Part shown: piece after piece, positions 39,486 through 40,199 of the stretch
Position numbering within the stretch: the stretch's first letter is position 1
Layout: each line of letters starts with the position of its first letter
UHGV virus genome: UHGV-1461890
Source: a virus
Length of the DNA: 41,432 nucleotides
Reading direction: 5' to 3' (one strand)
Program-made: the position numbers and the translations under genes
Notes under the pieces: model-generated
What the model saw: only the letters and a program-made list of their open reading frames with translations
Database searches by the model: none
Told to the model about the DNA's origin: nothing

Positions 39486-40199
39486 ATGAGTGATACCATG
39501 AGTCTCTTTGACCTCCTCCCTGAAGAAGAGGCACAGTATTTTAAAAAGCAAAAGTCAACCGATTGGAAATGGACCATGGCAAATGACTATCCAAAAGAGA
39601 AAAATGGTCTCAAAGTGTTTAGTTGTTTTGCTTGTGGTGGTGGCTCTACTATGGGATATAAGTTAGCTGGTTGTGAGGTTTTAGGGTGTGTAGAAATAGA
39701 CCCTAAAATGAACGAGGTCTACATAAAAAACCATAATCCTAAGCATAACTTTCTTATGGATATAAGAAAATTTAACAAAATTCCTAATGAGAAACTGCCT
39801 GAAGAATTATTTAACCTTGATATACTCGATGGCTCTCCCCCCTGCACTACTTTCTCTATGGCTGGTGAACGAGAGGAAAGTTGGGGCAAGAAAAAGAAAT
39901 TTAGAGAAGGACAGGCTGAACAAACTCTTGATGATTTATCCTTTGTATTCATTGAAACGGTTGCAAAGTTAAGACCTAAAGTAATGATTATGGAGAATGT
40001 TGAAGGTCTTATAAAAGGTGAGGCGTGGAGCTATGTGCAGAGGATATATCAGCAATTAAATGATATAGGCTATCAAGTTAAGCATTGGTTATGTAAAGCT
40101 CATCTTATGGGTGTTCCACAACGAAGAAATCGAGTATTTTTTATAGCTTTGAGAGAAGACGTTGATTACGATTTGTGGGATTTAGATATCCCAAGATAA
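39486..40199 (+). CDS. DNA cytosine-5 methyltransferase, N-terminal catalytic half only (motifs I, IV, VI, VIII; TRD and motifs IX-X absent)
   Basis: Motif I FSCFACGGGSTMG, motif IV GSPPCTTFSMAG (PC Cys), motif VI MENVEGL, motif VIII QRRNRVFFIA; ORF stops 237 aa in with stops in all frames before the next gene. Confidence 0.7.
   Translation: MSDTMSLFDLLPEEEAQYFKKQKSTDWKWTMANDYPKEKNGLKVFSCFACGGGSTMGYKLAGCEVLGCVEIDPKMNEVYIKNHNPKHNFLMDIRKFNKIPNEKLPEELFNLDILDGSPPCTTFSMAGEREESWGKKKKFREGQAEQTLDDLSFVFIETVAKLRPKVMIMENVEGLIKGEAWSYVQRIYQQLNDIGYQVKHWLCKAHLMGVPQRRNRVFFIALREDVDYDLWDLDIPR

Follow-up and report, generated by a model that had tools for sequence, protein, structure and literature searches.

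C5-cytosine methyltransferases as single chains, subunits and fragments

In C5-cytosine methyltransferases, the target-recognition domain (TRD) and motif IX make up the domain that recognises DNA, and the catalytic domain is complete only with motif X, as seen in the structures of M.HhaI and M.HaeIII. The closest described relatives of the gene considered here are full-length orphan enzymes carried by phages and prophages of gut Clostridia (P0002, 370 aa, and P0003, 369 aa; PF00145, PHROG 116), for which the closest solved structure is 8yf3_A; P0002 aligns with this structure over its whole length, motifs IX and X included (E=2e-35), and its alignment to solved structures through these two motifs is consistent with this layout. 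The dcm gene of the phage UHGV-1461890 shares with these enzymes 80-91% identity over residues 1-234, the N-terminal extension (DWKWT), motifs I-VIII and a position directly after the HTH_39 and SSB genes; it differs from them in lacking about 135 C-terminal residues and in ending in three foreign codons.

Natural two-subunit C5-cytosine methyltransferases also exist, among them M.AquI and M.EcoHK31I. [quoted passage not shown] The polypeptide of UHGV-1461890 likewise stops after motif VIII, at an extent near that of M.AquI alpha (PMC3404938); in contrast to the two-subunit type, however, the phage has no beta-like ORF, the short form is unconserved and the end of the ORF reads as a deletion scar. 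Finally, engineered N-terminal fragments of M.SssI, M.HhaI and M.BspRI were cut at a comparable place, between motif VIII and the TRD, and are inactive alone (PMC3404938). More generally, N-terminal fragments of these enzymes are inactive on their own and recover part of their activity only if co-expressed with a complementing C-terminal fragment (PMC3404938). Those fragments were made deliberately and tested with their complementing C-terminal halves, whereas no such half is known for the phage fragment.

A truncated dcm in a temperate phage of gut Clostridia

The whole stretch of DNA analysed here, 41,432 nt in length and hereafter called the window, represents the essentially complete genome of a temperate phage, has a GC content of 38.5% and encodes terminase, a P22-like portal, capsid proteins, a BppU baseplate protein, an amidase endolysin, a serine recombinase, CI/Cro-type repressors, YqaJ exonuclease, RecT, HTH_39, SSB, DUF6948 and DUF1064 proteins. 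Its temperate nature is indicated by the large serine recombinase (32111-33607, minus strand; Resolvase, Recombinase and Zn_ribbon_recom domains) combined with the divergent CI/Cro-type HTH genes at 34441-36045. A single ORF of 3782 aa (15917-27265, plus strand), amounting to 27% of the genome, encodes a polyvalent protein with an ART-PolyVal ADP-ribosyltransferase domain (PF18760) at residues 2188-2354 (E=1.8e-21), the rest of the chain having no Pfam match at E<=0.001. Both ends of the window (1-47 and 41375-41432) lie in one 18-bp tandem repeat coding for GSG(D/Y)GSG, and an ORF that begins at about 41340 (MEKIKEFLKIELGSGSGYG...) continues past the 3′ end and is taken up again in frame 3 at the 5′ end (...GDGSGSGDGIKAINGDTIYQIDG...). 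Since both ends fall in one and the same repeat, the contig is probably a complete circular or circularly permuted genome broken within the repeat.

The truncated dcm ORF (39486-40199, plus strand) encodes 237 aa, with homology to full-length phage C5-cytosine methyltransferases over residues 1-234; its final three codons (ATC CCA AGA) and the TAA stop are junction or foreign sequence, and GGGAGG stands 8 nt upstream of its ATG. An earlier note on this DNA had reported that motifs I, IV, VI and VIII occur in order and that the chain then stops, and the motif positions bear this out: on the plus strand lie the AdoMet-binding loop of motif I (FSCFACGGGSTMGY, aa 45-58, 39618-39659; FxGxG), motif IV with its PC (GSPPC) and the catalytic Cys120 (DGSPPCTTFS, aa 115-124, 39828-39857), motif VI with ENV (IMENVEGL, aa 168-175, 39987-40010) and motif VIII (PQRRNRVFFIA, aa 211-221, 40116-40148), the QxRxR signature of which falls in PQRRNR (aa 211-216). 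The match to PF00145 is far beyond chance (E=8.7e-39) and is a half-profile match, residues 43-228 covering positions 2-167 only of the 324 in the profile. The TRD that belongs between motifs VIII and IX is missing, the alignment to family members stopping at aa 234, and so are motifs IX and X.

This short form is unique. Among about 5.8 billion clustered proteins searched, the exact 237-aa sequence occurs as a singleton, on a single 41432-bp contig, which is the window itself. The next 119 matches have 80-91% identity to the query, of which they cover 93-99%, and their lengths without exception (119/119) fall at 348-381 aa; homologues of about 240 aa, which the earlier note had considered as a possible full-length form, are thus absent among the close homologues. 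At about 60 related loci drawn from ENA contigs, IMG/VR and GTDB genomes, dcm is full-length unless a contig end cuts the gene, so that neither proteins nor loci conserve a split architecture. The GTDB loci come from gut-Clostridia MAGs, chiefly of the Acutalibacteraceae and Christensenellaceae, in which the related dcm sits in prophage-like regions. Megablast of window 38700-41432 against the INPHARED phages gave no match, hence no near-identical reference phage is present there.

In the wider family, the 50%-identity representatives of an exhaustive search are mostly 330-390 aa, and the short representatives form tiny clusters of mixed length, mostly from contigs of 1-5 kb. A conserved short family was therefore rejected, these short entries being sporadic and fragment-like. 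At the other extreme of length, relatives of about 700-750 aa (P0262, P0263, P0280, P0297, P0315-P0321 and others) align to the query as two separate blocks (their residues 3-99 with query 25-121, and about 463-580 with query 119-227); by sequence they look like methyltransferases carrying an intein-looking insertion of about 360 aa directly after the catalytic PPC motif. PHROG 36001 has the same two-piece matching pattern.

The breakpoint and the remnant of a second gene

In a protein alignment (A1), the window tracks its relatives to ...YDLWDLD and then reads Ile-Pro-Arg-stop, whereas the relatives continue after DLD with MSFNYEPITYG, a variable TRD, QTFPQDYDF (motif IX) and GMSVPP (motif X), extending about 135 aa past the breakpoint. 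At the nucleotide level, independent blastn alignments to L007, L008, L009, L010, L097, L098 and L099 all end at window 40189 (as does alignment A2), and the truncation point, which the earlier note had proposed to locate by comparison with full-length homologues, is thereby mapped to one nucleotide. Homology to the 3′ end of a gene like that for phosphoadenosine phosphosulfate (PAPS) reductase begins at 40186, and the two homologies overlap in an ATAT microhomology at 40186-40189 on the plus strand.

Window 40186-40256 is 90% identical over 71 nt to positions 7833-7903 of a relative (L011), where a 270-aa gene, the next one 3′ of dcm in that relative, has its last 22 codons and its stop; this gene is assigned to PHROG 424, “phosphoadenosine phosphosulfate reductase” (E=9e-25). 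Pfam recognised nothing in the 270-aa gene or in the replication gene of the window, and the PHROGs identified both. In the window, the last 21 codons and the stop of the PAPS-reductase-like gene occupy 40189-40254 on the plus strand (SQDKYFRWEMLDKPLQYKIMF followed by the stop), in the +1 frame relative to dcm and hence untranslated with it. The remnant (ISQDKYFRWEMLDKPLQYKIMF, then the stop) is identical at 18 of 22 residues to the C-terminal tail of P0401, a conserved tail in a family of 4316 proteins at E<=1e-20. Compared with the phage PAPS-reductase-like proteins of PHROG 424 (about 256-280 aa; P0401 and L011 7089-7901), the 22 post-breakpoint codons match the tail FRWxMLDxPLQY; the window, however, keeps the last 8% of the gene, without a start codon and out of frame with dcm. 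No full-length member of PHROG 424, which would have about 260-280 aa, a PP-loop-like region at the N-terminus and a Cys-rich one at the C-terminus, is present, 22 C-terminal codons being what remains of it.

As the join is out of frame, the dcm frame meets TAA at 40197-40199 after three foreign codons. From the dcm stop to the next gene there are 65 nt, made up of the tail remnant and a ribosome-binding site (AAAGGAGG); this site and the intact gene for a DnaD-like helicase loader that it serves (ATG at 40268; PHROG 8489, E=1e-72) span 40255-41014 on the plus strand. In four independent contigs (L167-L170), a PAPS-reductase-like gene stands directly 5′ of the DnaD-like gene, and window 40186-40717 is collinear with this pair: over 535 nt the identity is 74.6%, rising to 88.8% in the first 107 nt, and in the region of the ribosome-binding site the window does not differ from these contigs.

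Relative to L011, the segment missing from the window measures 1153 bp, and ATAT is all that its two sides have in common; the left and right flanks are best matched by different relatives (82-90% nucleotide identity), so that the figures given for the deletion and for the microhomology are estimates. An exact parent genome did not turn up: exact-pattern scans of IMG/VR and JGI metagenome contigs with the remnant, the dcm side and the junction returned 0 matches, and thus neither a second copy of the junction nor a near-identical parent.

The missing half of the enzyme is encoded nowhere in the phage. The C-terminal halves of 7 close relatives, compared by tblastn with the whole 41.4-kb window, gave a best E=0.8, and an HMM of the C-terminal half built from 119 relatives gave a best E=0.6 against all six-frame segments of the window. 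Pfam recognised no other methyltransferase among the window ORFs of at least 190 aa, and a second ORF of the M.AquI type, with the distal variable region and motifs IX-X, is absent both next to dcm and anywhere in the window. These searches extend to the whole window the earlier observation that no TRD or motif IX-X is found in any frame before the replication gene, and they give a negative answer, for the phage, to the search for a separate TRD plus motif IX-X ORF proposed with it. A false stop created by a sequencing error, also raised at that time, is ruled out because the downstream DNA contains no C-terminal half in any frame: the coding DNA is physically absent. Rescue by frameshifting or read-through is ruled out on the same ground.

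From junction to mechanism: weighing the explanations

The short dcm is most likely a recently broken, inactive gene, and we consider it very probable that an ordinary single-chain dcm of about 370 aa was cut down to an inactive fragment, its 5′ two-thirds, by illegitimate recombination. The parent would have carried SSB, dcm, the PAPS-reductase-like gene and the DnaD-like gene in this order, and one illegitimate-recombination event would have joined codon 234 of dcm to the last 22 codons of the PAPS-reductase-like gene, either as a deletion of about 1.15 kb in such a parent or as an equivalent join between two related phages. Translation of dcm across the out-of-frame join would then end after the three foreign codons. 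The event would have removed the TRD and motifs IX and X of dcm along with about 92% of the PAPS-reductase-like gene, destroying both genes. Start codon and ribosome-binding site are retained, and the dcm fragment is probably still produced; deprived of the DNA-recognition domain and of the helix of motif X, with which the AdoMet pocket is complete, it would be expected to have no methyltransferase activity, and the phage would no longer methylate its own DNA through dcm. Since comparable N-terminal fragments of C5-cytosine methyltransferases are inactive alone (PMC3404938), the 237-aa product, if made, should likewise be inactive as a methyltransferase, and the phage has probably lost its dcm-based methylation function.

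At columns at least 95% conserved, the 233 retained residues carry 0 private substitutions, compared with a mean of 1.0 in the relatives. From this the event looks recent, as judged from the sequence, although zero substitutions would be equally expected under continued selection on the fragment. The earlier note had left three readings unranked, namely a decayed remnant, one half of a split enzyme and a catalytic-half protein with another role. The first is the one that gains support, from the single-chain homologues of about 370 aa, the one-nucleotide breakpoint and the foreign out-of-frame tail. The split-enzyme reading finds none, as no partner ORF exists in the phage and the short form is a singleton; nor does the third, given the same singleton and the sporadic, fragmentary nature of short forms elsewhere.

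Could the junction have arisen during assembly, the real phage having intact dcm and PAPS-reductase-like genes that were misjoined by an assembler or a chimeric read? The window consists of one metagenomic contig, both ends of which break inside a tandem repeat, the 237-aa protein occurs on one contig only, and the slot between SSB and the replication genes is highly mosaic among co-occurring relatives, a situation that can confuse assemblers. Yet a graph mis-join is unlikely, since the approximately 4 nt (ATAT) common to both sides of the junction in the available references are far below assembler k-mers, and both flanks are otherwise collinear with relatives. An artefact of this kind is accordingly improbable, and we infer that the junction exists in real phage DNA.

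It is highly improbable that the 237-aa protein is expressed and kept for a role in trans, whether through reassembly with a TRD/IX-X fragment or Dcm of the host or of a co-resident prophage, or as a dominant-negative partner or decoy directed at host methylation or defence; were trans reassembly to take place, methylation specificity would depend on the host. A natural split enzyme, in which the 237-aa chain is an alpha-like subunit (as in M.AquI) and the TRD and motif IX-X partner comes from the host or a co-resident prophage, can draw on the in vivo reassembly of detached N- and C-terminal fragments of M.BspRI, M.BsuRI, M.HhaI and M.SssI (PMC3404938), on an end between motif VIII and the TRD that lies near the start of the optimal complementing M.SssI C-terminal fragments (PMC3404938), and on the intactness of every catalytic motif in the fragment. 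Against this stand the lack of a partner ORF in the phage, whereas the two M.AquI ORFs are adjacent, a short form that recurs in none of more than 119 close homologues and at none of about 60 loci, and a 3′ end formed by out-of-frame fusion to the remnant of another gene, which points to an accident rather than to an evolved gene boundary; we regard a natural split enzyme as extremely unlikely. A catalytic half that has acquired a new function, such as AdoMet binding, dominant-negative partnership with host Dcm or an anti-defence decoy, has a retained start and ribosome-binding site and the lack of degenerative substitutions in its favour, but recency explains that lack equally well, no relative conserves a short form and motif X, needed to complete the cofactor pocket, is missing, so that it too is extremely unlikely.

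Gene turnover between SSB and the replication genes

The SSB gene (39036-39470, plus strand) is the conserved left neighbour of dcm in the relatives, and what follows it varies. The slot between SSB and the replication genes holds a dcm of 348-381 aa, or one of 513-648 aa; in some relatives a radical-SAM gene (PHROG 9298) comes after dcm, and a PAPS-reductase-like gene is found either after dcm, as in L011, or without any dcm, as in others. By sequence comparison, this slot in phages of gut Clostridia is clearly a recombination hot spot for interchangeable genes of the DNA-modification type.

Several features of the slot and its surroundings deserve mention in their own right. The PF00145 proteins of 513-648 aa occur after SSB in the phages with the closest DnaD-like gene (L092 2950-4800, L093 3049-4995 and L095 3230-4771); they are too divergent for detection by tblastn with P0002, and they may be multispecific (multi-TRD) methyltransferases. 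The genes that follow dcm (L009 1988-2884, L004 7240-8136 and L011 7089-7901), like the one at L167 389-1201, are of the radical-SAM (PHROG 9298) or PAPS-reductase-like (PHROG 424) kind. Radical-SAM and PAPS-reductase-like proteins, otherwise unrelated, have their first 10 or so residues in common, (M/V)NIGLID(V/A)DG, and this start may be a common recombination linker or a translational-coupling region. Inside the DnaD-like replication gene, a 21-bp tandem repeat is present in 2.2 copies (40674-40717). Phage origins are often found inside the initiator gene, and this repeat may represent origin iterons. A second 21-bp repeat lies at 1871-1927.

With regard to annotation, the ORF at 39486-40199 is best described as a truncated and probably inactive methyltransferase, not as a functional enzyme, and m5C self-protection through dcm should not be assumed for UHGV-1461890. 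Beyond annotation the significance is small: the case is one of recent truncation of an ordinary gene from a well-known family. One may speculate that a host with modification-dependent restriction favoured losing dcm and the PAPS-reductase-like gene together. For the biology of these phages, UHGV-1461890 represents a fresh scar of gene turnover in the slot between SSB and the replication genes.
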